This document shows positions 5,640 to 26,607 of a stretch of DNA of 37,385 bases, in pieces. Made by a program: the position numbers and the translations under genes. Within the stretch, counting starts at the first letter, position 1. The number at the start of each line of letters is the position of its first letter. The notes below the pieces were generated by a model. It saw only the letters and a program-made list of their open reading frames with translations. It ran no database searches and was not told the DNA's origin. The stretch is from Trueperaceae bacterium (GTDB taxonomy: Bacteria; Deinococcota; Deinococci; Deinococcales; Trueperaceae): positions 4,002 to 41,386 of the forward strand of contig JBBDRK010000034.1 of the NCBI GenBank assembly GCA_040905465.1. Reading direction: 5' to 3'.

Positions 5640-5674
5640 TTGGGCATCAATGATCGCGCGAGACAAGGAGGGGA

Positions 5675-5706
5675 CGTACCGGCCGGACCTCGGTCCGGCC
5701 GGTACG
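5675..5706 (-). terminator. GC-rich stem-loop between binding-protein and permease genes (mRNA stabiliser or partial terminator)
   Basis: Perfect inverted repeat CGTACCGGCCGGAC-ctcg-GTCCGGCCGGTACG; no clear U-tract. Confidence 0.7.
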
Positions 5707-5714
5707 CCTTCTCA

Positions 5715-7879: not shown

Positions 7880-8152
7880 ATGGGCAGGCTCGACCACTGC
7901 TTCCTGCTGAAGATGCGAGACGGCCGCAGCGGCATGGCGTTCTGCGCTGCCGGGGAGCGAAATATCGAACGAGCTCGCGATGAAGCGTCTCGGGCGCTGG
8001 AGCGCGAGGAGTACGGGCAAGAATCGGAGCTGGCATACCTGGGGCTGCTCGACTATCGCCAGGTGGAAGACTCGGCAACCGACATGTTGGGTGCGTTCAT
8101 CAAGCGCGGCCCGGTATGGCTCGCTTTCTTCGAAGCGGGAGAGGCACCTTGA
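7880..8152 (+). CDS. Small hypothetical protein (90 aa) immediately upstream of ubiX
   Basis: GGAGGAGG at 7861-7868 before ATG 7880; stop lies 2 nt before the ubiX ATG. Confidence 0.7.
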   Translation: MGRLDHCFLLKMRDGRSGMAFCAAGERNIERARDEASRALEREEYGQESELAYLGLLDYRQVEDSATDMLGAFIKRGPVWLAFFEAGEAP

Positions 8153-8154
8153 CT

Positions 8155-8757
8155 ATGAGACTGGTCGTCGGCATCAGCGGTGCCTCTGGCGCCATTTACG
8201 GCATCCGAGCGCTCGAAGTGTTGCGCGAGCTGGGCGTCGAGACACACCTGGTCTTGACCGCCGGGGCCCGTGCAACCATCGCCTATGAAACCGAGTACGA
8301 CACCGAGCGGGTCAAGGAGTTGGCGTCGGTGGTCCACAACGAGCAGAACCTGGGGGGCGCCATAGCCAGCGGTTCATTCCGGACCGATGGGATGCTGGTA
8401 GCCCCCTGCTCCGTGAAATCGTTGTCCGGCATCGCCAACAGCTACGATGACAATCTGCTCATTCGCGCCGCCGACGTGGTGCTCAAGGAGCGCCGCAAAC
8501 TGGTCCTGATGGTGCGTGAGAGCCCGTTGCACGCCGGGCACTTAAGGTTGATGAGCCAAGCCACCGAGAACGGCGCCGTGATTCTGCCACCGATGCCGGC
8601 GTTCTACCACCAGCCCCGCACTATCGCCGACCTCGTCGACCAGGGGGTCGGCAAGGCGCTCGACCAGTTCGGCCTCGATGCCGGCCTGTTCGACCGCTGG
8701 GAGGGGAGCGCCAAGGCGGGCCGCGAGGCGAAGCTTAGGCGCGACGGGGACGAGTAA
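8155..8757 (+). CDS. ubiX: Flavin prenyltransferase UbiX/Pad1
   Basis: VGISGASG, IASGS, APCS, RAADVVLKERRKLVLMVRESP, PPMPAFYHQP. Confidence 0.96.
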   Translation: MRLVVGISGASGAIYGIRALEVLRELGVETHLVLTAGARATIAYETEYDTERVKELASVVHNEQNLGGAIASGSFRTDGMLVAPCSVKSLSGIANSYDDNLLIRAADVVLKERRKLVLMVRESPLHAGHLRLMSQATENGAVILPPMPAFYHQPRTIADLVDQGVGKALDQFGLDAGLFDRWEGSAKAGREAKLRRDGDE

Positions 8758-8842
8758 AGGGTCGCCGGTTCTCCCGAGGGCTCGGCCGTCGAGCAGGTCC
8801 AACTAAGGCTCGGCCCGTCGTGGAGTCCGCGCTGAGGCTCGT

Positions 8843-10120
8843 TCAGTCGTCGCCCGAGTCGGCCGGCCGCTCGGCGCCCGAGGCCTTGGCCGCCGCCTTC
8901 ACGTCCCTGTCCACGTCCACGTCCGCCTCCGCCTCTACTCCGGCGAAGTGACCGCGCCGCGCCAGGAGCAGGACGATGGAGGTGCAGGAAATCAGGGCGG
9001 CGATCGGGAACATCGCCTGGAAGCCTACGGTCTGGGCGATAAGGCCCAGCGCCAGCGGTCCGGTCACCTGCATGAGGCGGTTGGCGGTGAGCCGCAGGCC
9101 GAACGCCATGCCGCGCTCCTTGGCCGCCACCCGGTCCACCACCGCCACCATGGTGAGCGGCTGGGCGATGCCCAGCCCCACACCGACGAGCAGAGCGACG
9201 CAGGCGAGCGCCCAGATGGAATCGCCGTACACGATTCCCGCCAAGCCGACGATGCTCATAGTCATGGTGACCAGCAGGGTGCGGAAGCGCCCTCCGAGGT
9301 GGCTGATGATCAGCGGCATGAACGGCCGTACCATTATCGTTACCAGCGCCCGCAAGCTGATCACCGCACCTATGACCGTGGCCGGAAATGCGAGCAGGTC
9401 CAGGTAGGCGGGCAGGAACGACTGGTAGCCCAGCGCGGGAATCATGAGCGTGCCGCTGACCAGCAGCGCCAGCTGCACTCCCGGATTGCGCAGGAGTCGG
9501 GACACCTGTGCCGGGCTGGGAAAACGATGCGGCTCGCTGCTGACGGTGCGCTCCGGCTGTCGCAGCCGCACTACCAGCAGCACGGACAGGGTCGACAGTA
9601 CACCCGACAGGGCGAACGCCTCCTCGAAACCGAGCAGGTCGACAGTGACGCCGGCGATGAGCGGGCCCAGCAACTGGCCACCCGAGATGAAGGTGCTGTA
9701 CCAGCCGAAGTTCTGCTCGCGCCGGCGACCGCCGCCCAGTGTGGCCACGAAGCTCTGCGCGGCGACAACCGCCAGCAACTGCCCCAGGCCCCCCAGCACC
9801 TGCAGCAGTCCTAGCGCCGCGAACCCCGGAAACAGCGGTACCAGGAACGGCGAGAGCCCCACCAGCAGCGTGCCGGCTATCAACATGCCGCGCGAGCCGT
9901 ATCGGTCGACGAGCGACCCTGCCGGGATCGCCAGGAACAGGGGGAACAGGAAGGCGGCCGCAATGACAACGCCTATGACCGCGGGAGATGCTCCCAGCGC
10001 CACGCTGTAGAGCGGCGCCAGTGGCGCGATCATCGTGTGACCGACGAACATCAGGCCGATGGCGGCGCAAAGGGTCCAGAATCGGGCCGGGTCCGCTGGC
10101 GGGCCGCCGGCGGGCTTCAC
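8843..10120 (-). CDS. MFS transporter
   Basis: About 12 hydrophobic segments; motif A-like GSLVDRYGSR. Confidence 0.92.
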   Translation of the reverse strand: MKPAGGPPADPARFWTLCAAIGLMFVGHTMIAPLAPLYSVALGASPAVIGVVIAAAFLFPLFLAIPAGSLVDRYGSRGMLIAGTLLVGLSPFLVPLFPGFAALGLLQVLGGLGQLLAVVAAQSFVATLGGGRRREQNFGWYSTFISGGQLLGPLIAGVTVDLLGFEEAFALSGVLSTLSVLLVVRLRQPERTVSSEPHRFPSPAQVSRLLRNPGVQLALLVSGTLMIPALGYQSFLPAYLDLLAFPATVIGAVISLRALVTIMVRPFMPLIISHLGGRFRTLLVTMTMSIVGLAGIVYGDSIWALACVALLVGVGLGIAQPLTMVAVVDRVAAKERGMAFGLRLTANRLMQVTGPLALGLIAQTVGFQAMFPIAALISCTSIVLLLARRGHFAGVEAEADVDVDRDVKAAAKASGAERPADSGDD

Positions 10121-10124
10121 ACTC

Positions 10125-11093
10125 TCACGGCTCGAGCAGCAGCTTGCCCGTGCTCTGGCGCGACTCCAGGTAGCGGTGTGCTTCGGCCGCCTCGGCCAAG
10201 GGGAAGATGCGGGTCACCGGAACCGTGATGTCGCCGGCGGCCAGCAGGTCGAGCATCGCGACGGCCGCCTGCCTCACGCCCTCCGGCCTGTTGCGACGGT
10301 AGTGACCGCTTGAGTAGCCGATCACTGTGCGGTTCGCTGAATGTAGCAGGCCGGTGCCCACATGGCCGTCGCCGCCGGCGTTGCCGAACACCACCACGCG
10401 GCCGAACGGCGCCAGCAGCTCGAGCCCTTCAGCGAAGTGTTCGCCAGCCACCGGGTCGAGGCTCAGATCGATTCCCTCGGGAGCCGCCTCCCACAGCCGC
10501 TCGACCAGCTCGGCGCCGCGGCCCACGACCACCGTGTCGGCGCCGTACGATTCGGCGACCTCGCGCTTGGCATCGCTGCCGACGGCGGCGATGATGCGGC
10601 CGGCGCCAAGCTTGCGGGCCAGTTGCAGCAGCACCGTCCCGACGCCGCCGGCGGCGCCGTGTATCAGCACCGTTTCGCCCGGGTCGAGCCGCCCCTTCAC
10701 TACCAGGACGTTGTAGGCGGTCATCAGCACCACCACGCCGGCAGCCTGGCGTAGATCGGCACCCTCCGGCAGCGGATAGCAGAGCTCCTTGCGGGCGCGG
10801 ACCGTTTCAGCATAGGCGCCACCCTCGGTGGCCGCTGCCACCAGCTGGCCGTGCTCGATGCCCTGAACGCCGCTGCCGACCGCGATGACTTCGCCGGCGA
10901 CGTCGAGTCCCGGGATGAACGGAGTCTTGCGCGCCCCGTGATAGCTGCCCCGGCGCCCTTTCACGTCAGCGAAGTTGATGCTTATGTAGCGGCTGCGGAC
11001 CAGCACCTCACCCGCAGCCGCCTCCGGTTCGGGTACCGTCTGGAGCCGCAACACTTCTGGGCCGCCCAGTTCGCTGACAACGATGGCACGCAT
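10125..11093 (-). CDS. Zinc-independent MDR oxidoreductase (NADPH:quinone reductase / enoyl reductase-like)
   Basis: Start MRAIVVSELGGPEVL after RBS agaggagg; INFAD, PGLDVAG, HGAAGGVG, STGKLLL. Confidence 0.92.
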   Translation of the reverse strand: MRAIVVSELGGPEVLRLQTVPEPEAAAGEVLVRSRYISINFADVKGRRGSYHGARKTPFIPGLDVAGEVIAVGSGVQGIEHGQLVAAATEGGAYAETVRARKELCYPLPEGADLRQAAGVVVLMTAYNVLVVKGRLDPGETVLIHGAAGGVGTVLLQLARKLGAGRIIAAVGSDAKREVAESYGADTVVVGRGAELVERLWEAAPEGIDLSLDPVAGEHFAEGLELLAPFGRVVVFGNAGGDGHVGTGLLHSANRTVIGYSSGHYRRNRPEGVRQAAVAMLDLLAAGDITVPVTRIFPLAEAAEAHRYLESRQSTGKLLLEP

Positions 11094-11269
11094 CGGCACT
11101 CCTCCTCTGGTAACTCTGTTCCCGCCGGCAAGTTCGTCTTGCTTCGGCATCACTCTGTCCTTCAACAGCCGGCTCCATCCGGAAAGCCACTCGGCCTCGG
11201 TAACGCGCTCCTGCGTTCGGTTCCCGGCCTGCGACCGGGGCCGGATCACTCCCTATGAGCCGAAGCGGT

Positions 11270-12478
11270 TCAGGAAGTGAGTTCCAGCAGTTCGCCGGCC
11301 ACGTACCTGCCGATCGCCAGCGAGGCTGTCGCTGCCGGCGAGGGTGCGTTGAGCACGTGCAACGCCCGTTCCGAGGAGATGAACACGAACTCGTCCACCA
11401 GCGAACCGTCCGGATTGAGCGCCTGCGCGCGAACCCCGGCGCCGCCCCGGACGACATCCTCGTCGCGCAGCTCGGGCACCAGCCTCTGCAGCGACTCCAC
11501 GAACGCCCGCTTGTTGAGCGAGCGGTAGTACTCGTAGGCGGCAACCCGCCAGTGCTTGCGAACCAGCTGCCACACCCCGGGATAGCGCAGCGCTCCGACG
11601 AGCTCGGACGGGTTGATCCGGCTCCAGTCGTAGCCTTCGCGTGCGAACGCGAAGACGGCGTTCGGGCCGGCTTCCACCTCGCCGTCGACGGTGCTGGTGA
11701 GGTGCACCCCCAGGAAGGGGAAGCTTGGGTCCGGCACCGGATAGATGGTGCCGCGCACCAGCTCGCGCCGCTCCGGCGTCAGCTTGTAATACTCGCCGCG
11801 GAAGGGCACGATCTGCACATCGGGCTTGTGGCCAGCCTGGCGGGCGATCTCGTCGGCATAGAGTCCGGCGCAGTTGACCAGGTAGCGACTCCGTATCTCG
11901 CCGCTGTCGGTGGAGATCCTCAGCATGCCGGGAGATTCCCTGATGCCTGTTACTCGGGCGCCAAACTCGAAGGCAGCGCCGCGCTCGCGCAGCAGCTCGG
12001 CGTACTTTTCGGCGATCCTGGCGTAATCGACTATCGCGGTATTCGGCGACCAGATCGCGCGCAGTCCGGCAGCGTGAGGTTCGATTTCGCGCAGCCGCTC
12101 CGGGCCGATGAGTTCCAGTCCCTGAACTCCGTTCTCGACCCCACGCTCGAATAGGGTCTCCAGCCGCGGTATCTCGTCCTCACGAGTCGCGACCACCACC
12201 TTGCCGCAGCGGTCGTAGGCGAGGCCGTGTTCCCGGCAGAACTCGCGCAGCAGCTCGACACCCTCCACGCACAGGCGCGCTCGCAGGGTGCCCGGGCGGT
12301 AGTAGATGCCGGAGTGCACTACGTTGCTGTTGTGGCCGGTCTGGTGCCGGGCTACGCCCTGTTCCTTCTCGAGCACCACGATCGACATGTCGGGCGCGCG
12401 CTGCGAGAGCGCCAATGCCGTGGCGAGGCCGATGATTCCTCCGCCTATGACGGCGAGATCGTAATCCGGATTGAGCAA
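11270..12478 (-). CDS. lhgO: L-2-hydroxyglutarate oxidase-like FAD oxidoreductase
   Basis: IGGGIIG, HQTGHNS..HSGIYY, PFRGEYY, IYPVPDP.FPFLGVH, AGVRAQA, NAPSPAATAS. Confidence 0.9.
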   Translation of the reverse strand: MLNPDYDLAVIGGGIIGLATALALSQRAPDMSIVVLEKEQGVARHQTGHNSNVVHSGIYYRPGTLRARLCVEGVELLREFCREHGLAYDRCGKVVVATREDEIPRLETLFERGVENGVQGLELIGPERLREIEPHAAGLRAIWSPNTAIVDYARIAEKYAELLRERGAAFEFGARVTGIRESPGMLRISTDSGEIRSRYLVNCAGLYADEIARQAGHKPDVQIVPFRGEYYKLTPERRELVRGTIYPVPDPSFPFLGVHLTSTVDGEVEAGPNAVFAFAREGYDWSRINPSELVGALRYPGVWQLVRKHWRVAAYEYYRSLNKRAFVESLQRLVPELRDEDVVRGGAGVRAQALNPDGSLVDEFVFISSERALHVLNAPSPAATASLAIGRYVAGELLELTS

Positions 12479-12549
12479 CCGCTACCTCCTGTATTCCCGC
12501 ACCAGCGTTTCACGCCGCAGCGCCGCCTCGCGTGCCGAAGACACGCGGA

Positions 12550-13911
12550 TCAGGCAGTGTCATCGTCCTCGTTCCGTTCTCCCGGCGTAGACGTCGACTG
12601 GGAGGACGACCACGGTTTCGCCTTCCCGACGGATTCGTCGTCGAGCTCGTCGTTGTGCTGGCCGAGGAGCGGGGGCGGCGTGGGCGACCGGCGGCCCGAG
12701 CGGCTGTAGCGCAAGGGGCTGCCGGGCAGCCGCAGCGTTCCCAGTGTGGGGTGCTCGACCTCGTCGATCAGGCCCAGATGCGCCACCTGTGGTGAGGCGT
12801 AGACCTCGTCGACACTCAGTATCCGCCCTGCCGGAATGCCGGCCGAGTCGAGCCTCTTCATCCACTCGTCGACCGAAGCCGCCCGCAGCGCCGGCGCCAT
12901 GGCGGCCTCCAGCTCTTCCACCCGCGCCACCCGCTCGCGGTTGCCGGCGAAGCGCGGTTCGTCGGGGTCGAGGTTCACCAGGGGGGCGAAGCGGCGCCAC
13001 AGCCCCTCGGAGCCGACCGCAATGTTGATGTCGCCGTCGGAGCATTCGAACGTCCCGTAGGGGGCGATCAGTGGGTGGCGATTGCCTTCGGCGGCGGGAA
13101 CGTCGCCCGCCAGCAGCCAGCGGGTGCCCTGGAAGGTATGGATGGCTACCATGCCGCCCAGTAACGAGGTGCTGACCCGCTGTCCGCGCCCGCTGCGGTT
13201 GCGCTCCACCAGCGCGCTCACCACCCCATAGGCACCGAACATGCCAGCCAGGATGTCGCCGATCGGCACACCGACCTTAGTCGGCGGTCCCCCGACCGGC
13301 CCGGTGAAGCTCATCAGGCCGCTCTCGCCCTGCACGATCTGGTCGAACCCCGGCCTGTGGCCGTCGGGTCCGCCTTCGCCGAAGCCGGTGATCGACAGAA
13401 CCACCAGTCGCGGGTTCAGGGCCTCGAGCTCGGACTCGCTCAGCCCTAGCCGTTCCATCACCCCCGGGCGGAAGTTCTCCACCAGCACGTCGGCGCCCTG
13501 GATCAGCCGGCGCAGCCGAGCTATGGCCGCCGGCTCCTTGAGGTCCAGCTCCAGGGACCTCTTGCCACGGTTGAGCGACAGGAAGTAGGCCGACTCCTGG
13601 CCCGCTGGCCCCAGACGCGCCGCTTCCTGCCCCGCTGCTTGCCGGCCTGCCGCATCCGGAGTCGCGGTTTGCTCGCTCGCGGGCCGCTTGCCCACGGAGT
13701 GCTCCAGGAACGGCGGACCCCAGCTGCGCGAGTCGTCGCCCTTGCCGGGACGCTCGACCTTGATCACCTCGGCGCCGCCATCGGCCATCATCTGTGTGGC
13801 GTAGGGACCGGCGAGTGCTCGTGTCAGGTCGATGACGGTGATGCCGTCGAGCGGGCCTCCGGCACCGGTTCGACGGTCGGCGGCCGGCGCGCCCTGGCGG
13901 GGCCGGCTCAC
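12550..13911 (-). CDS. Family III CoA-transferase (CaiB/BaiF)
   Basis: DLTRALAGP, VIKVERPGKGDDSR, NRGKRS, ENFRPG, catalytic Asp in KVGVPIGD. Confidence 0.95.
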   Translation of the reverse strand: MSRPRQGAPAADRRTGAGGPLDGITVIDLTRALAGPYATQMMADGGAEVIKVERPGKGDDSRSWGPPFLEHSVGKRPASEQTATPDAAGRQAAGQEAARLGPAGQESAYFLSLNRGKRSLELDLKEPAAIARLRRLIQGADVLVENFRPGVMERLGLSESELEALNPRLVVLSITGFGEGGPDGHRPGFDQIVQGESGLMSFTGPVGGPPTKVGVPIGDILAGMFGAYGVVSALVERNRSGRGQRVSTSLLGGMVAIHTFQGTRWLLAGDVPAAEGNRHPLIAPYGTFECSDGDINIAVGSEGLWRRFAPLVNLDPDEPRFAGNRERVARVEELEAAMAPALRAASVDEWMKRLDSAGIPAGRILSVDEVYASPQVAHLGLIDEVEHPTLGTLRLPGSPLRYSRSGRRSPTPPPLLGQHNDELDDESVGKAKPWSSSQSTSTPGERNEDDDTA

Positions 13912-14447
13912 CGGTCACCATGGTCTTCCAGTGCCTGACGGTGCAGCGCCGACTTGCGGAAGTACGATTCGGCGATCCTGTCGATCAACGCGCACTCCTC
14001 GTCGGTCACATCGCGCACTATCCGCCCGGGCACCCCGGCGACCAGCGAGCGCGCCGGTATCTCGCTGTTCTCCCGCACCACGGCGCCGGCGGCGATGAGC
14101 GAATAGCTGCCGATGCGGCAGCCGTTGAGAACGGTCGCCCGCATCCCTATCAGCACGTGATCCTCGATTCGGCTGCCGTGGACGAGCGCCCCGTGGCCGA
14201 GAGAGACCTCACGCCCGAGCACCAGCGGATGGCCCGGATCGGTATGCAGCACCGAGCCGTCCTGGATGTTGCAACGTTCACCTATGACTATCTCCTCGTT
14301 GTCGCCGCGCAGCACACTGCCGTACCAGACGCTGGCGCCCGACGCCAACGATACCCTGCCGATGAGAGTGCACATGGGAGCCACGAAGGCGTCGTTCGCC
14401 ATATCCGGCCGGTGGCCCCCGTAGGGCAGGATCAGCGCCCTGCTCAC
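13908..14447 (-). CDS. Gamma carbonic anhydrase family protein (PaaY/CaiE/YrdA-like)
   Basis: Hexapeptide repeats, LRGD, NIQDGSVLH, GHGALVHG (three metal-ligand His). Confidence 0.93.
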   Translation of the reverse strand: MSRALILPYGGHRPDMANDAFVAPMCTLIGRVSLASGASVWYGSVLRGDNEEIVIGERCNIQDGSVLHTDPGHPLVLGREVSLGHGALVHGSRIEDHVLIGMRATVLNGCRIGSYSLIAAGAVVRENSEIPARSLVAGVPGRIVRDVTDEECALIDRIAESYFRKSALHRQALEDHGDR

Positions 14448-15301
14448 AGCGGCTCTCCCGGCACGACGTAGCCGAGCTGCCGGGACAACTCCGCGCCGGC
14501 GGATATCGCCAACCCGGCGATCGACTCGAGCCGTTCCCGTGGCATGCGCACCGCCGGCCCGGTCACGCTCAGACTGGCGACCACCGCCCCGGTGTGGTTG
14601 GCGACCGGCACGGCGACGGTATGAATGTCGTGCACGCGCTCGCCGAACGACAGCGCGTAGCCGCGCCGCCTGATCTCGTCGAGCTCACCACGGAGCTCGG
14701 CCGCATCGGTGGGGGTCACGTCGGTGACCGCCTCGAGTGGCCCGGCCAGAATCGCTTCGCGGGCCTCGGGCGACAGAAAGGCCAGCAAGACCTTGCTTGG
14801 CGCCCCCTGGTGCAGCGGGATCGGTTGGCCCAGTTCGGTGTAGGTGCGTCTTAGCGGCTTGTGGCTCTCGGCCTGGTCAACCACCACTCGCCGATTGTCG
14901 GCGCGGAGGATGTGCAGTCCAACCGTCTCGTCGCTGGCGTCGCGCAGTCGCTGCATCAGCGGCAGCGCCGCCTGACGCACGTTCACGTGGCCGCTTGCGA
15001 TATAAGCGAGCCTCAGGATGTGCGAGCCCAGGGCGTAACGCTTGCTGCCGCTGACCTGTTGAACCAGGCCATGAGCCAGCAGGCTGTTGAGCAGGCGGTG
15101 GGTGGTGCTTGTGTTCAGCCCCGTCAGGTGCGCTATGGCCGATAGGCCCAGCTCGCTACGTTCACGGGTGAACACGTTGAGAATCGCCACCGCCCGATCG
15201 AGAGAGCGAACGTCGCTGCCGGGCGCCGGCTTTGCCGCGCCCTCGCCGCCTCCGGTTGCCGCGGCGCTCTGTTGCCGGTGCCCGGGTGGATTTCCATGCA
15301 T
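14444..15301 (-). CDS. IclR family transcriptional regulator
   Basis: VRSLDRAVAIL, HTH (STTHRLLNSL), ETVGL, RRRGYALS, VAVPV..SLSVTGP; exact start uncertain. Confidence 0.94.
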   Translation of the reverse strand: MHGNPPGHRQQSAAATGGGEGAAKPAPGSDVRSLDRAVAILNVFTRERSELGLSAIAHLTGLNTSTTHRLLNSLLAHGLVQQVSGSKRYALGSHILRLAYIASGHVNVRQAALPLMQRLRDASDETVGLHILRADNRRVVVDQAESHKPLRRTYTELGQPIPLHQGAPSKVLLAFLSPEAREAILAGPLEAVTDVTPTDAAELRGELDEIRRRGYALSFGERVHDIHTVAVPVANHTGAVVASLSVTGPAVRMPRERLESIAGLAISAGAELSRQLGYVVPGEPL

Positions 15302-15378
15302 TACAGGTTCACCATTCCCATGCTCGACTCCTGCCGTGTCAGTGCCGGTTGCGAGGCATATCGCAGAGGGCGCGATGC

Positions 15379-15408
15379 TTGACTCGCCTGCAAGATATCA
15401 CGTAAGCT
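15379..15408 (+). promoter_or_regulatory. sigma70-type promoter of the CoA-transferase/tct operon
   Basis: TTGACT (15379-15384), 18-bp spacer, TAAGCT (15403-15408). Confidence 0.65.
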
Positions 15409-15427
15409 GTCCACAATACAAAATCCT

Positions 15428-15444
15428 TTCCCACCAGGTGGGAA
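15428..15444. promoter_or_regulatory. Probable IclR operator
   Basis: Perfect palindrome TTCCCACC-A-GGTGGGAA in the divergent intergenic region, downstream of the -10 element. Confidence 0.72.
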
Positions 15445-15540
15445 TTCCATCGAGACTGACCGGCCCCGCCGGCAAGCAGGCTCACCCCTGACGGGCTCAC
15501 CCGAAACGATGACCGGGCCTGCGAAAGGAGCAGACCAAAA

Positions 15541-16776
15541 GTGTTGCCGCTGGACGGATTCAAGGTCCTCGACCTCACCCGCTTTCTTTCCGGGCCCTAC
15601 TGCACGATGGTCCTGGCGGACATGGGCGCCGACGTCATCAAGGTCGAGAACTTCCCGGAAGGGGACGACTCTCGCCGCCTCGGTCCCAAGGTCAACGGCG
15701 AGAGCTATCCCGCCGCCATGCCCAACCGGAACAAGCGCAGCCTGGCAGTGAACCTCAAAGAGGACCGGGGCCGCGAGCTGTTCCTGCGGCTGGCCACGGA
15801 GAGCGACCTGGTGATCGAGAACTTCAGGCCGGGCGTGACCTCCAGGCTGGGTGTCGATTACCAGGCAGTCAAGGCCTTAAATCCCAAGATCATCTACTGC
15901 TCCATCACCGGCTTCGGTCAGACCGGGCCATACCGCGACCGTCCCGGTTTCGATATCATCGCCCAGGGTGTGACAGGCTTCATGCGCATGACCGGCGCGC
16001 CGGGCGGCGAACCGGCCAAGGTGGGGATAGCCATCAGCGACATCGCCGCCGGTGCGACGGCCGCACAGGCGATCCTGGCGGCGGAGATCCACCGGATGCG
16101 CTCGGGTGAGGGCCAGTACATCGACATCTCGCTGGTCGACGCAGGTTTGGCATGGACAGTCTGGGAAGCGGGCGCCTACTTCGGCAGCGGCGAACTGCCG
16201 CAGCCGATGGGCAGCCGTCACCGGCGCTCCGCTCCCTACCAGGCGTTTCGCACGGCAGACGGTTACGTGACGATCGGCGCCAACAACCAGCGGCTGTGGC
16301 AGCGCCTGTGCAACGACGTGCTGGACCGACCCGAATGGCTCGCGGACCCGCGCTACGCAGAGGGGCCCGCGCGCCTGGAGCATGTCGACGAGCTCACACG
16401 AGACATCGAAGAGATAGTCAGCCAACAGCCGACGCAGTACTGGGTCGAGCGCCTCGACGACGCCGGGGTGCCGGGCGGGCCGGTTCTGCGCTACGACGAG
16501 ACGCTCCGCAACGAACAGGTGCTGGCCCGCGAGATGGTCGTAGAGATGGAACACCCCAAGATCGGCCCCATGCGCGCTCTGGGAATTCCCGCCAAGATGT
16601 CGGGCACGCCGTTCACAGTGCGCGCTCCGGCGCCCTGGTTGGGGCAGCACACCAGCGAGGTCCTCGCCGGTGCCGGCTTCGCCGCCGAGGAGATCGCCGA
16701 TCTCTACCGCAGCGAGGTCGTCTTCGACCGATACCGTGAGCCGAGCGTCGAGGAGGCGCGAACCGATGACAAATGA
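15541..16776 (+). CDS. Family III CoA-transferase (CaiB/BaiF)
   Basis: RBS aaggag; DLTRFLSGP, NRNKRS, ENFRPG, catalytic Asp in KVGIAISD. Confidence 0.95.
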   Translation: MLPLDGFKVLDLTRFLSGPYCTMVLADMGADVIKVENFPEGDDSRRLGPKVNGESYPAAMPNRNKRSLAVNLKEDRGRELFLRLATESDLVIENFRPGVTSRLGVDYQAVKALNPKIIYCSITGFGQTGPYRDRPGFDIIAQGVTGFMRMTGAPGGEPAKVGIAISDIAAGATAAQAILAAEIHRMRSGEGQYIDISLVDAGLAWTVWEAGAYFGSGELPQPMGSRHRRSAPYQAFRTADGYVTIGANNQRLWQRLCNDVLDRPEWLADPRYAEGPARLEHVDELTRDIEEIVSQQPTQYWVERLDDAGVPGGPVLRYDETLRNEQVLAREMVVEMEHPKIGPMRALGIPAKMSGTPFTVRAPAPWLGQHTSEVLAGAGFAAEEIADLYRSEVVFDRYREPSVEEARTDDK

Positions 16777-17572
16777 GAAGATTCCTACCAACCAGGGGCT
16801 CGATGAGCTGTACCTGGAGAAGGACGGTGCGATAGCCACACTGGTCATCAACCGTCCTGAGAAGCGCAACCCAATCAGCTTCCGTATGTGGCAGGCACTA
16901 CCGTCGCTGGTGGCCGAGGTGGAGGCCGACGACGCAGTCAAAGTGCTGGTGCTGCGTGGCGCCGGCGATGCGGCGTTCTCGGCCGGCGCGGACATCAGCG
17001 AGTTCGACAGGTACCGCGCGGACTCCGAGGGAGCGCGACTCTACAACGAGGCCACCCATGACGGAGAGCGGGCATTGGTCGGCCTGAGCAAGCCATCTAT
17101 CGCCATGGTGCGGGGATTTTGCATCGGCGGCGGCTGCGAGTTGGCTTTGGCATGCGATTTCCGTTTCTCCGACACCACCGGACGTTTCGGCATAACGCCG
17201 GCCAGGCTAGGAATCGTCTACAGCCTTACGGCCACCAAGCAACTCGTCGACCTCGTAGGTCCGGCGACGGCGAAGTACATCCTCTTCTCGGGCCAGCACG
17301 TCAGCGCCGAACGCGCCCTGGAGGTGGGGCTGGTCGATGAGCTGCTGGCCCCGGAAGAGCTGAACGCCCGCACCCGGGAGTTCGCGGAGCTTCTTGCCAG
17401 CAGGTCGCAGTACTCGATCCGCAGCATGAAGCAGATCATCGGCCGGATTGTCGGCGGCCAGGTCGACGACGACGCCGAAACGACAGCCATGCGCGACGAA
17501 TCGTTCGATACCGCGGACTACAAGGAGGGCGTTCGTGCCTTCCTGGAGAAGCGTCCGCCGCGGTTTGGGTAG
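16766..17572 (+). CDS. Crotonase-superfamily protein (enoyl-CoA hydratase/isomerase-like)
   Basis: NRPEKRN, AFSAGADI, CIGGGCELALACDFR, EGVRAFLEKRPP; RBS gaggagg. Confidence 0.93.
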   Translation: MTNEKIPTNQGLDELYLEKDGAIATLVINRPEKRNPISFRMWQALPSLVAEVEADDAVKVLVLRGAGDAAFSAGADISEFDRYRADSEGARLYNEATHDGERALVGLSKPSIAMVRGFCIGGGCELALACDFRFSDTTGRFGITPARLGIVYSLTATKQLVDLVGPATAKYILFSGQHVSAERALEVGLVDELLAPEELNARTREFAELLASRSQYSIRSMKQIIGRIVGGQVDDDAETTAMRDESFDTADYKEGVRAFLEKRPPRFG

Positions 17573-17584
17573 CCGGCACGAATC

Positions 17585-18055
17585 GTGGACGAGTCAGCCG
17601 CTCGCAGGAGGTTCGAACAGGCAGTCCGTGAAGCGGAGCCGGAGTTCGAAAGGTTCTTCCTGGCACGCTTCTTCGACCTCACCGTGAGTTTCGGCGACGA
17701 GACCTGCAGGGTGGACCTGCCGGTGTCCGACTACCTCTTCAACCCACAGGGATCGCTCCACGGCGGCGTTATGAGTTTCGCTCTCGACGTGTCGATGGGT
17801 CATCTCTGCAACCGGTTCCTGTCGACAGGTGTAACGCTCGAAATGAAGACTCAGTTCCTGAGGCCCGTAAGCGGCGACTGCCGCTGCGAGGCGTCGTTCC
17901 TCAAGAAGGGTCGGCGGGTGGCGTTCGTCGAGTCCCGCCTTCTCGATGCCCGGGACCGCCTGGCCGCGGTGGCCACGTCCACCTGGATGCTGCAGTCACC
18001 TTCTGAGCCACCTTCGGAGACGTCGACGGGGGGTGACAGGCATGCCCTAGGGTGA
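17585..18055 (+). CDS. PaaI family (hotdog-fold) thioesterase
   Basis: NPQGSLHGG...D motif, TLEMKTQFLRP. Confidence 0.9.
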   Translation: MDESAARRRFEQAVREAEPEFERFFLARFFDLTVSFGDETCRVDLPVSDYLFNPQGSLHGGVMSFALDVSMGHLCNRFLSTGVTLEMKTQFLRPVSGDCRCEASFLKKGRRVAFVESRLLDARDRLAAVATSTWMLQSPSEPPSETSTGGDRHALG

Positions 18056-18117
18056 TGCTGGTCGACGTAACCCAAGCTTGGATAGCTTCGTGCACTACCC
18101 CAGAAGGAGGAAGCGGA

Positions 18118-19101
18118 ATGGCAACACGAGCAAGCTCGAGCCTCATGAAACGCATCACGCTCCTTGTAACGGCCACACTTCTAGCCTCACTGCCGGCTAC
18201 CGCGGTCGCCCAAGGCGACTATCCGAACCAGCGTCTCAACTGGACTATCGCGTTCGGCCCGGGCGGCGGCAACGACATAATGTCGCGCACGCTCATCGAG
18301 ATCCTCGAGAAGTACGACCTGTACCCGAACAATATCGTCGCCCAGAATCGGGCCGGCGGTAGCGGCGCGGTCGGCTGGGGCTACCTGTTCGCCCAAGCGG
18401 GCAATCCGTACCACATCTCGTCGACCAGCGGCAGCTTCATCACAACACCGCTTCAGGCGGACACGCCCTGGGGAACTACCAGCTTCACGCCGATCGCGCT
18501 GCTCGCCTCGGACGACATGGTGATTCTGGTGAACGGTGACTCGGAGATCGATTCGCTCGAGGACTTCATCGAGAGTGCCCGGGAGACGCCACCGTCGATC
18601 GGCGGCATAGGAGCGGTGAACGTCGACTTCATCATTCCCACGCTGCTGGCCGATCAGGCCGGCTTCGAGTTCGACTACGTGTCGTTCAACGCCGCCGGCG
18701 AACTCAACACCGGGCTCCTGTCCGGCTCGCTGGACGCCATCATGTCCAACCCCGGCGAGGTGCTGGGCCTGATGGAGTCGGGCGACATGAAGGCGCTGGC
18801 CTTCAGCGGCGTCGAGACGCCGGAGGCGCTCGGCGACCTGCCGACCTTCGCCGAGGCCGGCTTTCCAGTCGACGTCTCGCTGCCGCGCGGTCTGATCCTG
18901 CCCCCGGACGTTCCGCAGGAGGCGCAGCAGTGGTGGATCGACACCATGAGAGAGGTAGTCGAGACGCCGGAGTGGCAGGAGTACATCGACAACAACCTGC
19001 TCACCGAGAACATCCGCTACGGCGACGAATTCACCGCCTTCCTGCAGAACACCCAGGACTCCTTCGAGCGCATCCTGCGTGAGCAGGGAGCGATCGACTA
19101 G
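18118..19101 (+). CDS. tctC: Tripartite tricarboxylate transporter substrate-binding protein
   Basis: Signal peptide ending AVAQ, YP...FGPGGGND, NRAGGSG; RBS aggagg at 18105-18110. Confidence 0.93.
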   Translation: MATRASSSLMKRITLLVTATLLASLPATAVAQGDYPNQRLNWTIAFGPGGGNDIMSRTLIEILEKYDLYPNNIVAQNRAGGSGAVGWGYLFAQAGNPYHISSTSGSFITTPLQADTPWGTTSFTPIALLASDDMVILVNGDSEIDSLEDFIESARETPPSIGGIGAVNVDFIIPTLLADQAGFEFDYVSFNAAGELNTGLLSGSLDAIMSNPGEVLGLMESGDMKALAFSGVETPEALGDLPTFAEAGFPVDVSLPRGLILPPDVPQEAQQWWIDTMREVVETPEWQEYIDNNLLTENIRYGDEFTAFLQNTQDSFERILREQGAID

Positions 19102-19123
19102 CCGGATCGCACGCAACGGAGCG

Positions 19124-19145
19124 CGGGCAGGCCAACGCCTGCCCG
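19124..19145 (+). terminator. Stem-loop after tctC
   Basis: Inverted repeat CGGGCAGGC-caac-GCCTGCCCG. Confidence 0.55.
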
Positions 19146-19171
19146 GCCCGTCGCCGAAAGAGAGCGCACGC

Positions 19172-19615
19172 ATGAGACTCGCTTTCACGTTGTTCCTTCT
19201 CGCCCTGGCGGCCTTCTATACCTGGACGGCGTTCATCGACCTGGCCCCGTTGACGGCCAACGGACGATTGGGCCCGGGATTCTTTCCCAGGGTTATCGGC
19301 GTCGCGCTCGTTGTCACCCTGCTCTATTCGATCGTCATCGACAGGAGATTCGGACTCACCTCGGGAGAGGAAAGCGCCTATGCGCGTGACATAGTGATTT
19401 TCACCGGCCTGCTGGTGCTGTTCGTGGCGGCGTTGCACGTGCTCGGCGGGCTGTTGGCGATGGTGGCCTTCATGTACGCGGCACTCACGATCTTCAACCG
19501 CCGCCGTCACCTGCAGAACATCCTGGTGAGCGTGCTGCTCCCGACCGGCATCTTCCTCCTGTTCAACACCTGGTTGAACGCCGGGATTCCCGAGGGAATC
19601 CTCGCCTTCCTCTGA
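19172..19615 (+). CDS. tctB: Tripartite tricarboxylate transporter small membrane subunit
   Basis: LGPGFFP motif, 4-5 TM segments, C-terminal IPEG; lies between tctC and tctA. Confidence 0.9.
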   Translation: MRLAFTLFLLALAAFYTWTAFIDLAPLTANGRLGPGFFPRVIGVALVVTLLYSIVIDRRFGLTSGEESAYARDIVIFTGLLVLFVAALHVLGGLLAMVAFMYAALTIFNRRRHLQNILVSVLLPTGIFLLFNTWLNAGIPEGILAFL

Positions 19616-21162
19616 TGGAACTCCTATCTGATCTCTGGCTCGGTATGTCGGTTGCGGTGACGCCCGCCAACCTGTTCTTTCTTTTTATCGGGGCGCTCGT
19701 CGGCATCGTGGTAGGCGTGTTCCCCGGCCTGGGACCGTCGGCCGGCATCGCCATCTTGCTTCCCATCACGTTCGGGATGGACAGGATCAGCGCCGTGGTG
19801 ATGCTGGCGGCCATCTACTACGCCGCCATGTACGGCGCTACCCTCACGTCTATCCTGCTCAACGTTCCCGGGGCCTCGGCGGTGGTGGCGAGCACCTTCG
19901 ACGGTTACCCGCTCGCCAAACAGGGGAGGGCGGGACCTGCCCTGGTGATGCAGGCTGCCGCTTCGTTCGTCGGCGGAACCGTTGGCGTTATCCTGATCAC
20001 CCTTCTGGCCCCGGTGTTCAGCCGCGTCGCCCGGAGCTTCGGACCGCCGGAGTTCTTCATGCTGGTGATGATGGGCCTGCTGGCCCTGGTCGTGATGGTC
20101 GGCGCCAACTGGCGCTACGGAGTGATCTCGGCGCTGCTCGGCTTCGGCCTGGCAACGGTTGGCGTCGACCTGGTGACCGGAGCGCAGCGCTACACCTTCG
20201 GCTCCGCGCAGCTCATCGGCGGCATCGACTTCATTCCCATCGCCATCGGGCTGTTCGGCATCGGCGAGTTGCTCTACTCCCTCCACATCGGCGTTCACAG
20301 GTCGGCTTCGGGGGTGATCGCCTATCGCAGCGAGGACCGCTTCTGGCCGACCGCCGTCGACTGGCTGGAGAGCAGGTGGACGTTCGTCCGCAGTTCGGTG
20401 CTCGGTTTCGTGGTGGGGATTATTCCGGGGGCCGGGGCCACCATCGCCTCGCTGATGGCTTATTCGGTGGAGAAGTCGGTCTCCAAGACTCCGGAGAGGT
20501 TCGGCAAGGGTGCGATGCAGGGTCTGGTCGCCCCGGAGACGGCGAACAACGCGGCGTCGGCCGGCGCCATGATCCCGCTGCTCACCCTGGGGATTCCCGG
20601 GTCCGCTTCGACCGCGGTGCTGTTGGGGGCGTTCCTCCTCTGGGGCCTGAGGCCCGGTCCGCTGCTCATGACCCAGAACCCGGAGTTCGCCTGGGGACTG
20701 ATCGCCAGCATGTACTTGGGCAACATGATGCTGGTGGCGCTGTGTATCTTCGCGATACCGCTGTTCGTTGCGATGCTGCGCGTGCCCTACCGAATCCTCG
20801 CGCCCATCGTCGGCGTGCTGGCGGTAATCGGTACCTTCACGGTCAACGACAGCATCGTCGAGACCTGGCTGATGCTGGTTGCCGGCGTGGTCGGCTACTT
20901 CATGAAGCGCTTCGGCTTTTCGCCGGCGGCGCTGGTGGTTGCCCTGGTGCTGGGGCCGCTGGCCGAGGACACCCTGAGGCAGAGCCTCACGATCTCACGC
21001 GGGTCGTTCGCCATCTTCTACGAGCGGCCGGTTTCGCTCACGCTGGGGATCGTCACGATCGTGCTGTTCGTGCTGATGTCGTTCATGCGCCGGTTCCAGC
21101 GCTCGGCCGGCACCGAGCCAGGCGAGCCGGGCGAGGACATCACTCCGAAGTCGGCGGTGTAG
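19615..21162 (+). CDS. tctA: Tripartite tricarboxylate transporter large membrane subunit
   Basis: GVFPGLG, SILLNVPG, DGYPLAKQGRAG, PETANNA, LTLGIPGS. Confidence 0.96.
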   Translation: MELLSDLWLGMSVAVTPANLFFLFIGALVGIVVGVFPGLGPSAGIAILLPITFGMDRISAVVMLAAIYYAAMYGATLTSILLNVPGASAVVASTFDGYPLAKQGRAGPALVMQAAASFVGGTVGVILITLLAPVFSRVARSFGPPEFFMLVMMGLLALVVMVGANWRYGVISALLGFGLATVGVDLVTGAQRYTFGSAQLIGGIDFIPIAIGLFGIGELLYSLHIGVHRSASGVIAYRSEDRFWPTAVDWLESRWTFVRSSVLGFVVGIIPGAGATIASLMAYSVEKSVSKTPERFGKGAMQGLVAPETANNAASAGAMIPLLTLGIPGSASTAVLLGAFLLWGLRPGPLLMTQNPEFAWGLIASMYLGNMMLVALCIFAIPLFVAMLRVPYRILAPIVGVLAVIGTFTVNDSIVETWLMLVAGVVGYFMKRFGFSPAALVVALVLGPLAEDTLRQSLTISRGSFAIFYERPVSLTLGIVTIVLFVLMSFMRRFQRSAGTEPGEPGEDITPKSAV

Positions 21163-21180
21163 AACGGCGGCAAGCGGAGT

Positions 21181-22011
21181 CTAGTGCAGACGCCTCTGGA
21201 TGCCGGCTCGCTGCATGATGGTCGCCGCGATCTCCTCCACAGACGAGGCTGTCGTATTCAGGTAACCGATGCCCTGACGCTCGTACAGCCGTTCCCCCTG
21301 CCTGACCTCGCTTTCGCACTGGTCGAGTGAGGCGTAGCGACTGTCGGGTTTGCGGCGGCGGCGGATCTGATGCAGCCGCAGCGGGTCGATGGTGAGTCCG
21401 AAGAGCTTATCCCGATGGTCGGCCACCGCTCGGGGGAGGGCCAGGGAATCGAAGTCGTCGTCGGCTAGTGGGTAGTTGGCGGCACGGATCCCGAACTGCA
21501 TGCCCAGGAACAGGCAGGTCGGTGTCTTACCGGCGCGCGACACCCCCAGAAGGATGATGTCGGCCCGTTGGTAACTCTGCGTGGCCAAACCATCGTCGGT
21601 GCTGAGGGCGTAGTCGACAGCATCCATGCGCGTCTGGTAGGCGGAGAGGTCGACGATTCGGTGGTAGCGTCCTACTGCCGGGGAGGGGGCCGACTCCAGC
21701 TCCCCCTCCAAAGCGGCGAGATGGGGGTTGAAGATATCGAGCAGAAGCGCCCTGGCTGTCATCAACCGCTGCGCTATCGCGGCATCGGTGAGGGTGACGA
21801 ACGCTATCGGTCTGACACTCGCTCCCTGCGCCTCGCGGTCTATCTCCGCGACTACACGCTCGGCCTCGTCGACACTGTCAACGAACGGCCTGGTGACGAA
21901 ACGGAAGCGCTCTCCCTCGAACCGGGCAAGCAGACTGTGCCCCACTACCTCGGCCGTGATCCCCGTATGATCGGAGATGAAGAATACAGCACGTTCGCCG
22001 TCCTCGGTCAT
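21181..22011 (-). CDS. ppsR: PEP synthase regulatory protein (kinase/pyrophosphorylase, DUF299)
   Basis: FISDHTGITAE, DDG, GVSRAGKTP, AANYPL, SVEEIA; divergent from ppsA. Confidence 0.93.
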   Translation of the reverse strand: MTEDGERAVFFISDHTGITAEVVGHSLLARFEGERFRFVTRPFVDSVDEAERVVAEIDREAQGASVRPIAFVTLTDAAIAQRLMTARALLLDIFNPHLAALEGELESAPSPAVGRYHRIVDLSAYQTRMDAVDYALSTDDGLATQSYQRADIILLGVSRAGKTPTCLFLGMQFGIRAANYPLADDDFDSLALPRAVADHRDKLFGLTIDPLRLHQIRRRRKPDSRYASLDQCESEVRQGERLYERQGIGYLNTTASSVEEIAATIMQRAGIQRRLH

Positions 22012-22200
22012 GTCATCGTTCTCCCGCTCCGAACAGTAGCCCGAAATGTGGCGACCGTGTGACTGCTTCACCCGGTGGCGCGCTACTCTCGGCGAACAGC
22101 CAGACCACAGGTTGAGCCATCGGCGCTTCGACCTTAGCTTCTCGAAACGAAGACGAAGACAATGAGATGGCTTGGCGCTATGCTACGGGGGTACCGGTCG

Positions 22201-24628: not shown

Positions 24629-24814
24629 ATGCAGCAGGAACTCAACGTCCTCCTGACCGCCGGCCAGCTGAGCACCAGTCGGGCCGTTCTCGAGCAGCAC
24701 GCCCACGTGCTGCCGACGCTGATGCGCTCGCTCAAGCGCCGGTTCGACCCGCTGGAGATCATGAACCCGGGCAGGAAGATCGTTGGCCGGGAGCCGCTGG
24801 AAGGAGACCTATGA
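24629..24814 (+). pseudogene. Internally deleted FAD-linked oxidase (GlcD/D-lactate dehydrogenase-like): N- and C-termini fused in frame
   Basis: N-terminal-like LSTSRAVLEQH joined to the hallmark C-terminal motif LMRSLKRRFDPLEIMNPG in only 61 aa. Confidence 0.7.
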
Positions 24815-25803: not shown

Positions 25804-25890
25804 GGGTGCCCCGCGCCGCCGGTTCGGGGGTCCAAGGTCGAGGTGAGCATCGCCCGCGAGGAGGGACCTGAGTTCGTGGCGTCGTTGCGG

Positions 25891-26465: not shown

Positions 26466-26471
26466 GCAAGC

Positions 26472-26491: not shown

Positions 26492-26607
26492 GTGGCAGAA
26501 GAATGCGGGGGAGTCGTCGGCGACCCAAAGACGCCGCGCGTCGGTAGCCTGCTCCGGGTACCGTCAGCCTAGAGTTTTCGCCCGCCGCGGCCGTGGTAGC
26601 CTCCCTC

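Follow-up and report, generated by a model that had tools for sequence, protein, structure and literature searches.

An IclR-linked locus of Trueperaceae and a predicted CoA-handle pathway leading to the oxidation of a 2-hydroxy acid by LhgO

What becomes of an organic acid that is imported by a gene cluster in which a tripartite tricarboxylate transporter (TTT), two family III CoA-transferases, a crotonase, a thioesterase, and an L-2-hydroxyglutarate (L-2-HG) oxidase/dehydrogenase (LhgO) are found next to an IclR-family regulator? This question is raised by 12 genes of a Trueperaceae bacterium (Deinococcota; assembly GCA_040905465.1, here G000, 95% complete), which occupy positions 8843–21162 of the 37,385-nucleotide stretch of contig JBBDRK010000034.1 that was analyzed (the window; Table 1). 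The preliminary description of this DNA, made from the letters alone, had called the locus a CoA-dependent catabolic system that fits no nameable pathway. That assessment stands, as genes for β-oxidation, glutaryl-CoA catabolism, or an itaconate-pathway lyase are absent from the locus, CsiD was not found in the genome, and a full-text literature search, with most subscription journals and all supplements outside its coverage, found no description of the gene combination. We read the 12 genes, with middling confidence, as one IclR-controlled catabolic island, apparently laterally spread, in which CoA thioesters would be a temporary handle on an imported di- or tricarboxylate. With evenly balanced confidence, we predict that this pathway delivers an L-2-hydroxy-dicarboxylate to LhgO, which would take L-2-HG or a near analogue to the corresponding 2-oxo acid.

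Conservation of the locus and its operator

Gene families were assigned from the open reading frame (ORF) listing and from Pfam and NCBIfam profiles (Table 1). All 12 genes named in the preliminary description were borne out, and Pfam found no acyl-CoA dehydrogenase, thiolase, or CoA-lyase family among them. The genes for TctC, TctB, and TctA are adjacent, in the order C-B-A, and each product scores above its Pfam cut-off, which identifies a TTT. The regulator has both HTH_IclR and IclR_C domains, and a palindromic site lies in the divergent intergenic region. LhgO passes the curated NF008726 cut-off over the whole protein (550 versus 299 bits), predicting specificity for L-2-HG, and is encoded by a single gene in G000. 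Because the genes for IclR and the hexapeptide γ-carbonic anhydrase (γ-CA)-like protein overlap by 4 nt, as do those for the γ-CA-like protein and the second CoA-transferase (CoAT_L), and the gap between the QOR and MFS genes is 4 nt, the left arm looks like a single operon led by the regulator. The true start of QOR is probably downstream of the annotated one, since homology begins near residue 53. CoAT_L is 38% identical to the core transferase of the right arm (CoAT_R), and both are most like dicarboxylate enzymes: structures of succinate-hydroxymethylglutarate CoA-transferase (SUGCT) match them at E values of 1e-81 to 1e-87, with SUGCT being the best solved relative of CoAT_L (E = 3e-81). 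NCBIfam models for succinate-glutarate, succinyl-CoA:mesaconate, and oxalate transferases match both proteins, all below their cut-offs.

Synteny was scored by tblastn with the window proteins (E ≤ 1e-8 to 1e-10, >50% query coverage, best nonoverlapping match kept); several loci run to contig edges, where absences are uninformative. The preliminary description had proposed gene-neighborhood conservation as a check, and the locus passed it: the core, an IclR gene divergent from CoA-transferase–crotonase–(thioesterase)–TctCBA, recurs in 30 orthologous loci of Deinococcota, Actinomycetota, and Bacillota (duplicates counted once; 5 Trueperaceae, 21 Actinomycetota-type, and 4 Bacilli). A TctA orthologue (≥56% identity) is found downstream of the core in 24 of these 30 loci, a thioesterase gene in 22, and an adjacent IclR gene in 24, with none of the last in the 4 Bacilli loci. 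When one genome per species was scanned, 80 loci were obtained, 21 of them with CoAT_R at ≥60% identity, and a crotonase gene adjoined it in 20 of the 21; searches with the crotonase as query added 3 Actinomycetes and 4 Bacilli loci. Crotonase orthologues were matched in 8 of 401 sampled Actinomycetes genomes (including the unpublished G059 and G068), and orthologues or paralogues in 15 of 401 sampled Bacilli genomes, so we consider the locus rare.

The closest named relatives of the window locus are in Trueperaceae metagenome-assembled genomes (MAGs). Among 41 genomes (G000 and 40 relatives), only G000, G001, G002, and G022 have CoAT_R orthologues (73–100% identity); most of the 41 hold paralogue-level matches of ≤46%. 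CoAT_R of the window is 82% identical to its counterparts in G001 and G002, 73% to that in G022, 66–74% to those in Actinomycetota, and 64–65% to those in Bacilli. The gene order of the window, with all 12 genes, is found again in G001 and G002, whose MFS proteins are 70–75% identical to that of the window. In G022, 10 of the 12 are found; LhgO is missing, QOR is inverted, and FAH-family and MFS genes follow TctA, the relocated MFS protein being 47% identical. QOR is encoded in all five Trueperaceae loci, and 44–45% homologues lie beside paralogous CoA-transferase–crotonase pairs in the Bacilli loci L167 and L172.

The preliminary description had treated the two arms as a single functional unit, and both are indeed found together in further genomes, with the genes in different orders. 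Each of the five Trueperaceae loci has CoAT_L and the γ-CA-like gene along with the core. In the Actinomycetota loci L040, L041, L137, and L139, genes for a CoAT_L homologue (53–54%) and LhgO (47–49%) follow TctA on the same strand, with a 4-nt overlap in L041; LhgO without CoAT_L follows TctA in L038 and L047, and a transferase, LhgO, and a γ-CA-like gene lie upstream of the core in L030. In the Bacilli paralogue loci L169 and L172, genes for CoA-transferase, crotonase, γ-CA-like protein, and CoA-transferase are contiguous, with a QOR homologue nearby in L167 and L172 and with TTT or TRAP transporters, so the left-arm genes appear to travel with the right-arm enzymes. The linkage of the left arm to the core thus holds across gene orders and phyla, while LhgO, QOR, MFS, and the γ-CA-like gene turn out to be accessory rather than core. 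By this comparison, the constant part of the system is the transporter, the transferase, and the crotonase, with or without the thioesterase, and the variable part is always made up of predicted 2-hydroxy or 2-oxo acid enzymes.

A perfect 17-bp palindrome (TTCCCACCAGGTGGGAA) had been reported between the arms, and it was confirmed. In 240-nt regions upstream of 25 orthologous CoA-transferase genes (two of them, L035 and L051, from one unpublished genome), TCCC-N7-GGGA is present exactly in 13 and with ≤1 mismatch in 22, compared with 0.6 and 15.5%, respectively, in mononucleotide shuffles. In nearly all Actinomycetota loci, the same 17-bp element (consensus ATCCCAC-N3-CGGGAA) is found 22–45 nt before the transferase gene, and in G022 paired changes preserve the symmetry of the inverted repeat (TTTCCAC-ATT-GTGGAAA). 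These patterns argue that the palindrome is a genuine operator, carried along with the regulator and the operon. Since the operator is common to Trueperaceae and Actinomycetota and their CoAT_R proteins are 66–74% identical, we infer lateral spread between phyla.

The promoter that had been placed in the same region is less clear-cut. A consensus scan of positions 8600–21400 called one σ70-like site, outside the intergenic region, against 1.1 expected. Alignment of the five Trueperaceae intergenic regions shows an invariant CTTGAC (5 of 5); 18 nt farther downstream comes a conserved block, CGTA..CT, and beyond it the inverted repeat. In the window, the −35-like TTGAC (15379–15383) is followed 18 nt on by a weak −10-like TAAGCT. 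As the generic scan made no call there, the case for this promoter is drawn from conservation. Three terminator-like sites were found in 8600–21400, against 5.5 expected, and the only one in the intergenic region was the palindrome read as a hairpin. A weaker, half-palindromic block (GTCCACAATACAAAA, 15410–15424) about 20 nt upstream of the operator may be a second IclR site; several Actinomycetota have a TTCC..N..GGAT-like counterpart upstream.

LhgO, its replacements, and the proposed pathway

A 2-hydroxyacid oxidoreductase gene recurrently follows the core: LhgO in 10 of the 30 loci and a D-2-hydroxyacid dehydrogenase in 4. The route sketched in the preliminary description, from uptake through CoA activation, a crotonase step, and CoA release to the oxidation of a 2-hydroxy acid, fits these comparative data in outline. 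In-locus LhgO occurs in at least three gene orders, and the CoAT_L–LhgO pair is adjacent in both Deinococcota and Actinomycetota. The window LhgO shares 68% identity with the stand-alone LhgO of G014, a genome from a related genus, and only 47–49% with the Actinomycetota in-locus copies. Because it is closer to the former, it would seem to be a native protein recruited to the locus, with Actinomycetota having recruited their own copy, and two independent recruitments next to CoAT_L would suggest a functional link between these proteins. Of 14 Actinomycetota genomes that bear the locus, 12 also encode LhgO (11 of 13 if the unpublished G068 is set aside), compared with 128 of 301 sampled Actinomycetes (43%; the sample includes the unpublished G051, G059, and G068), an enrichment with a one-sided Fisher p of ∼0.002 that is overstated because kin are not independent. 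One of the two locus-bearing genomes that lack LhgO, G045, has a D-2-hydroxyacid dehydrogenase fused at the end of the operon.

Other loci have other enzymes at this point. A D-isomer-specific 2-hydroxyacid dehydrogenase gene lies directly after TctA in L032 and L034. In the Bacilli locus L160 (2595–11629, minus strand), CoA-transferase–crotonase–thioesterase–TctCBA is followed by genes for a LarA-type isomerase, a D-2-hydroxyacid dehydrogenase, and an HpaG-C-like FAH protein; LhgO is not found in this genome. The isomerase belongs to group 22 of the nickel-pincer (LarA-type) family (NF052515, 538 versus 400 bits), and its context may be a clue to the function of this uncharacterized group; LarA was sought in L160 and L164, where Pfam or NCBIfam was run. 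A citrate/2-methylcitrate synthase gene lies divergently upstream of the L160 operon. FAH-family genes occur in 11 of the 30 loci (closest solved relative, the HpaG/HpcE decarboxylase-isomerase, E = 4e-46; TIGR02303, 157–161 bits), and SDR genes in 6. When orthologues of the sister-locus FAH, SDR, and D-2-hydroxyacid dehydrogenase proteins were sought in G000, none closer than 37–43% identity was found (best FAH, 37%). Judged by these replacements, LhgO is interchangeable with a D-2-hydroxyacid dehydrogenase, a LarA-type isomerase, or an FAH-family enzyme. CsiD (PF08943), the known source of L-2-HG from glutarate, had no match in G000, in a search whose control matched E. coli, so this source was not found in the genome.

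From the gene content we infer the scheme that follows, including its direction of flux, the recycling of CoA, the effector of IclR, and the nature of the imported acid (X) and the product (Y). TctCBA would import X, and CoAT_R would form X-CoA with a donor such as succinyl-CoA. The crotonase would convert X-CoA to Y-CoA through enolate (α-carbanion) chemistry rather than canonical hydration. CoAT_L would then move CoA from Y-CoA onto fresh X, a recycling step like that of the carnitine system, and the hotdog thioesterase and the PaaY/CaiE-like protein could release or rescue CoA. Free Y would be an L-2-hydroxy-dicarboxylate, L-2-HG or a close analogue, which LhgO would oxidize to a 2-oxo acid (2-oxoglutarate for L-2-HG) that enters central metabolism. 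IclR would sit on the TCCC-N7-GGGA operator between the arms and be released by X or a CoA ester. 2-Hydroxyglutarate is a plausible intermediate; in at least some lineages, a 2-oxo acid of greater complexity is suggested by the FAH and SDR genes of the sister loci.

Several points weigh against this scheme. The FAH and SDR genes would be needless if the product were simply 2-oxoglutarate, QOR and the MFS protein have no step in it, and the scheme as a whole is built on sequence comparison. LhgO is also common without the locus, being present in 14 of the 41 genomes compared and 43% of Actinomycetes; in 9 related genomes no left-arm partner lies within 20 kb or less of it. It is missing from the core-bearing G022 (92% complete) and from G847. 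Finally, the stand-alone LhgO of G014 (68%) adjoins the same PF02441 flavoprotein (72%) that flanks the window locus (8116–8757; L124:4953–6770). This arrangement suggests that LhgO was resident at the site before the island assembled around it, and part of the LhgO adjacency in the window could be historical.

The crotonase and competing explanations

The reaction at the center of the scheme depends on an unusual crotonase. Its fold is that of ECH_1 (163.6 bits), and in alignments with a solved hydratase and with CaiD and ScpB of E. coli K-12 it keeps the first catalytic Glu (GGGCELA) and has Pro at the second (motif ITPARLGIVYS), so the hydratase Glu pair (rat Glu144/Glu164, AcuH Glu112/Glu132) is not conserved. 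None of 23 orthologues has an acidic residue at the second position, and neither does any of 25 sequences that take in the Bacilli groups; at the first position, 3 of the 23 orthologues have Glu, 18 have Gly, and 2 have Leu or Ala. In the bona fide hydratase AcuH both Glu residues are essential, as their Glu-to-Ala mutants are dead (PMC5651017, in part). The protein is by these features not a standard hydratase and is predicted to stabilize a thioester enolate. The preliminary description had offered decarboxylation or hydration for this step: canonical hydration falls with the Glu pair, and decarboxylation has some sequence support, although we found no natural substrate for it that would feed LhgO. 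The nearest solved crotonases (4wcz and 4olq) and the best 120 database homologues have generic names only, as do the ESM Atlas matches (generic enoyl-CoA hydratase clusters); 5649 of 8000 candidate homologues scored reach E ≤ 1e-30.

We tentatively rank first, as a possibility rather than an expectation, a stereoinversion at C2 (D to L) of a 2-hydroxyacyl-CoA. It is the only simple route that we see to an LhgO substrate without a hydroxylase, and it fits both the L- and D-specific dehydrogenase partners and the methionine-linked operon of Bacilli described below. By reasoning on paper, neither hydration nor decarboxylation of glutaconate, itaconate, aconitate, isocitrate, citrate, or the intermediates of protocatechuate 4,5-cleavage led to L-2-hydroxyglutaryl-CoA. 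We know of no crotonase-fold 2-hydroxyacyl-CoA epimerase. The chiral inversion of 2-arylpropionates proceeds by activation, epimerization, and hydrolysis via α-methylacyl-CoA racemase, and the dehalogenation of 4-chlorobenzoate uses a ligase, a crotonase, and a hotdog thioesterase. Both share the order of CoA on, enolate-type step, and CoA off with CoAT_R, the crotonase, and the thioesterase, and both differ in activating by a ligase where the window has a transferase. With LarA-type nickel-pincer racemases, 2-hydroxy acids, among them 2-hydroxyglutarate and malate, can be used in either enantiomeric form (PMC7583248, in part); a group-22 member is encoded in the orthologous L160 operon, whereas racemases of this type act on free acids with a nickel cofactor (PMC7583248, in part) and none is encoded in the window. 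Three points count against stereoinversion: the isomerase of L160 would be redundant, G000 encodes a YdiJ-like protein that is a candidate D-2-HG dehydrogenase (660 bits against a cut-off of 1350), and the FAH, SDR, and QOR genes are left unexplained.

The second-ranked explanation, which we regard as doubtful, is a hydration cycle like that of carnitine (CaiB/CaiD/CaiE) or acrylate (AcuN/AcuK). An unsaturated di- or tricarboxylate of fumarate-type backbone, such as mesaconate, citraconate, or trans-aconitate, would be activated with CoA and hydrated by the crotonase in a way that is noncanonical or assisted by the substrate; the freed product would be a substituted malate or an isocitrate isomer. 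Its oxidation by an LhgO-like enzyme or D-2-hydroxyacid dehydrogenase would yield a β-keto acid, which an FAH-family enzyme would decarboxylate in the sister loci. Such a cycle would account for the origin of the hydroxyl group, the oxidoreductase after the core, the recurring FAH-family protein, and the tricarboxylate-type transporter. The E. coli caiTABCDE operon has the same trio of family III CoA-transferase (CaiB), crotonase (CaiD), and hexapeptide γ-CA-like protein (CaiE), and cycles CoA between substrate and product. CoA-transferase, crotonase, and MDR-family reductase also mirror AcuN/AcuK(AcuH)/AcuI, which handle a small unsaturated acid (PMC5651017, in part), a likeness of composition only. 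However, the Glu pair is gone, with the second residue missing in all homologues and the first in 20 of 23 orthologues; CaiD keeps both residues and AcuH needs them. The window transferases reach only 82–132 bits with the CaiB model NF002914 (cut-off 413) and the γ-CA-like protein 87.8 bits with the CaiE model NF010150 (cut-off 305). The locus has no counterpart of CaiA, CaiC, or CaiT (acyl-CoA dehydrogenase, ligase, and BCCT transporter) and, unlike either system, combines a TTT of dicarboxylate type with LhgO. By its score this LhgO is a true L-2-HG oxidase equivalog, its inheritance looks vertical, and β-hydration of a C5 enoyl-CoA cannot, on chemical reasoning, give L-2-HG. The lack of a close FAH orthologue in G000 (best, 37%) also argues against this cycle.

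Decarboxylation, as by E. coli ScpB (YgfG, methylmalonyl-CoA decarboxylase) with ScpC, has the best motif support and is nevertheless unlikely in our estimate. A malonate-type acid (tartronate, methylmalonate, or ethylmalonate) would be CoA-activated and decarboxylated by the crotonase, the γ-CA-like protein would handle CO2 or bicarbonate, and the left arm would do something separate. The window crotonase and ScpB share the motif TP-x-x-LG-x-x-Y, in which Tyr takes the place of the hydratase Pro, neither has the second Glu, and a CoA-transferase gene adjoins scpB as well (scpC, whose product belongs to a family other than family III). The best model for the hexapeptide protein is that of a γ-CA (163.5 bits). 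The two crotonases are, however, only 27% identical, the ScpB model NF008506 gives 144.9 bits (cut-off 257), and of the ScpB residues Tyr and His, which we take to be active-site residues, Tyr is aligned and conserved and the His of AGHDI aligns with Ala. We could name no natural tricarboxylate or hydroxy acid whose thioester-assisted decarboxylation gives an LhgO substrate. A thioesterase would be superfluous if the product were acetyl-CoA or propionyl-CoA, and the recurrent 2-hydroxyacid oxidoreductases would go unexplained.

It is very improbable that the locus is a version of a known glutarate pathway, be it glutarate CoA-transferase with glutaryl-CoA dehydrogenase or CsiD with LhgO. The best named NCBIfam model for both transferases is that of succinate-glutarate CoA-transferase, and LhgO is the terminal enzyme of the CsiD route, giving 2-oxoglutarate (PMC5974017, in part). 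Against this, NF052585 scores only 328.6 and 307.6 bits, far below its cut-off of 750; as no CsiD was found in G000, CoA-ester chemistry would have to supply L-2-HG or its analogue; and the crotonase, the thioesterase, and the TTT would have no role in either route. The glutaryl-CoA dehydrogenase pathway was rejected on the NF052585 scores and on the lack of a dehydrogenase gene in the locus (GcdH was not searched genome-wide), and itaconate degradation (Ict/Ich/Ccl) on the lack of a citramalyl-CoA lyase family among the 12 genes (no genome-wide search was made).

Scarcely credible is the view that a housekeeping left arm (L-2-HG and quinone reductase) and a TTT-linked CoA-transferase cluster are unrelated operons sharing an intergenic region: the stand-alone LhgO of nine related genomes, the shared flavoprotein neighbor in G014, and other CoA-transferase–crotonase clusters in G000 (such as that on C16) would suit it, yet synteny already largely refutes it through the linkage of CoAT_L and the γ-CA-like gene to the core in all Trueperaceae loci, CoAT_L–LhgO behind TctA in four Actinomycetota loci, the contiguous Bacilli genes, and the 4-nt overlaps of IclR, γ-CA-like, and CoAT_L genes.

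Based on these comparisons, the locus appears to work like the Cai, AcuN/AcuK, and 4-chlorobenzoate CoA-handle systems and to be a member of none, because the equivalog scores and the defining catalytic residues fail.

Related modules, flanking genes, and significance

Six Bacilli loci (L046, L050, L170, L171, L174, and L175) contain genes of MetQ-MetN-MetI type followed by those for a paralogous crotonase (43–51%), an FMN-dependent L-2-hydroxyacid oxidase, and a CoA-transferase (53–56%). The operon was delimited at L046:5236–11212, L050:4235–11164, and L175:6817–12759; gene identities were taken from Pfam for L046 and part of L050, and from ORF sizes and tblastn for L170, L171, L174, and L175. 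Three of the six loci have a SAM riboswitch upstream (one of four in the later-tested set), and in L046 aminotransferase and nitrilase-family genes are found just upstream. The arrangement looks like methionine acquisition in which the transferase and the crotonase feed an L-2-hydroxyacid oxidase, which again links the module with 2-hydroxy acids. We suspect an undescribed route of methionine salvage that starts from a hydroxy-acid precursor. More speculatively still than for the window enzyme itself, the CoA-transferase and its TPAKLG-type crotonase may constitute an unrecognized stereoinversion module for 2-hydroxy acids, which would activate the acid, epimerize C2 on the thioester, and release it. 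If so, one stereospecific oxidase could consume both enantiomers: the window would convert D-2-hydroxyglutarate or a related D-2-hydroxy-dicarboxylate to the L-form for LhgO, and the Bacilli module would act likewise on the hydroxy analogue of methionine.

Two further contexts were seen. In a Paenibacillaceae MAG fragment (L044:37–4583), a CoA-transferase–crotonase pair (55 and 51%) lies among genes for an RraA-like aldolase, an Amidohydro_2 protein, and a LigB-type extradiol dioxygenase, a setting that resembles protocatechuate 4,5-cleavage. Locus L164 (8314–16421; also L163 and L165) has genes for CoA-transferase, crotonase, CoA-transferase, class V aminotransferase, MFS, a γ-CA-like protein, and a LarA-family protein.

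The flanks of the window locus are unrelated to it, with the PF02441 flavoprotein to the left and PpsR/PpsA to the right. The latter (21181–24579) are an ordinary divergent pair encoding the phosphoenolpyruvate (PEP) synthase regulatory kinase/pyrophosphorylase (PpsR, PF03618) and PEP synthase (PpsA). Farther out lie ABC transporter genes for a permease and a family 1 solute-binding protein (3828–6962) and, on the right, genes for a GFO/IDH/MocA oxidoreductase and an M19 dipeptidase (24811–27654), also unrelated. No RNA family scored above the Rfam gathering thresholds in the window. Elsewhere in G000, further CoA-transferase–crotonase–SDR and CoA-transferase clusters, 34–44% identical to the window enzymes, are found on contigs C16 (7618–10326) and C46 (92964–94073), and TctA paralogues on C16, C17, and C70.

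Table 1. Genes and intergenic elements of the locus, in window coordinates
Feature	Position	Strand	Profile match or remark
MFS transporter	8843–10120	minus	PF07690 (MFS_1), 161.8 bits; terminal gene of left arm
QOR (MDR-family NAD(P)H oxidoreductase, QOR/PIG3-like)	10125–11249	minus	ADH_zinc_N and ADH_N; PIG3-type TIGR02824, 225 bits (below cut-off 296.8)
LhgO (L-2-hydroxyglutarate oxidase/dehydrogenase)	11270–12478	minus	NF008726 equivalog, 550 bits (cut-off 299)
CoAT_L (second family III CoA-transferase, SUGCT-like)	12550–13911	minus	PF02515, 402.6 bits
Hexapeptide-repeat γ-CA/PaaY/CaiE-like protein	13908–14447	minus	PF00132; NF050158, 163.5 bits (cut-off 250); PaaY, 115.8; CaiE, 87.8
IclR-family regulator	14444–15301	minus	HTH_IclR and IclR_C; opens left arm
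Promoter-like region	15378–15408	plus	−35 TTGACT 15379–15384; 18-nt spacer; weak −10 TAAGCT 15403–15408
Palindromic operator, 17 bp (predicted)	15428–15444		TTCCCACCAGGTGGGAA; consensus TCCC-N7-GGGA
CoAT_R (core family III CoA-transferase)	15541–16776	plus	PF02515, 450.6 bits
Atypical crotonase	16766–17572 (likely start; ORF opens 16670)	plus	ECH_1, 163.6 bits
Hotdog thioesterase (4HBT/PaaI-type)	17585–18055	plus	PF03061; TIGR00369, 59.7 bits (cut-off 36.6)
TctC	18052–19101	plus	PF03401, 71.5 bits
TctB	19079–19615	plus	PF07331, 60.8 bits
TctA	19615–21162	plus	PF01970, 507.6 bits

The locus is a set of familiar enzyme families in an undescribed and conserved combination, with an atypical crotonase at its center. 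To our knowledge, clusters of TTT, family III CoA-transferase, and crotonase genes are numerous in bacteria and almost all unassigned. This one is unusually tractable, with a core conserved across three phyla, cultivable carriers (among them Geodermatophilus pulveris DSM 46839 and Actinopolymorpha alba DSM 45243), and a conserved operator that, together with its cognate IclR protein, could serve as a biosensor for the imported acid. Its crotonase belongs to a clade that lacks the hydratase machinery and so probably carries out other chemistry. Solving this locus would assign a function to a large clade of "enoyl-CoA hydratase-related" proteins and would also reveal a CsiD-independent route by which L-2-hydroxy-dicarboxylates reach LhgO.

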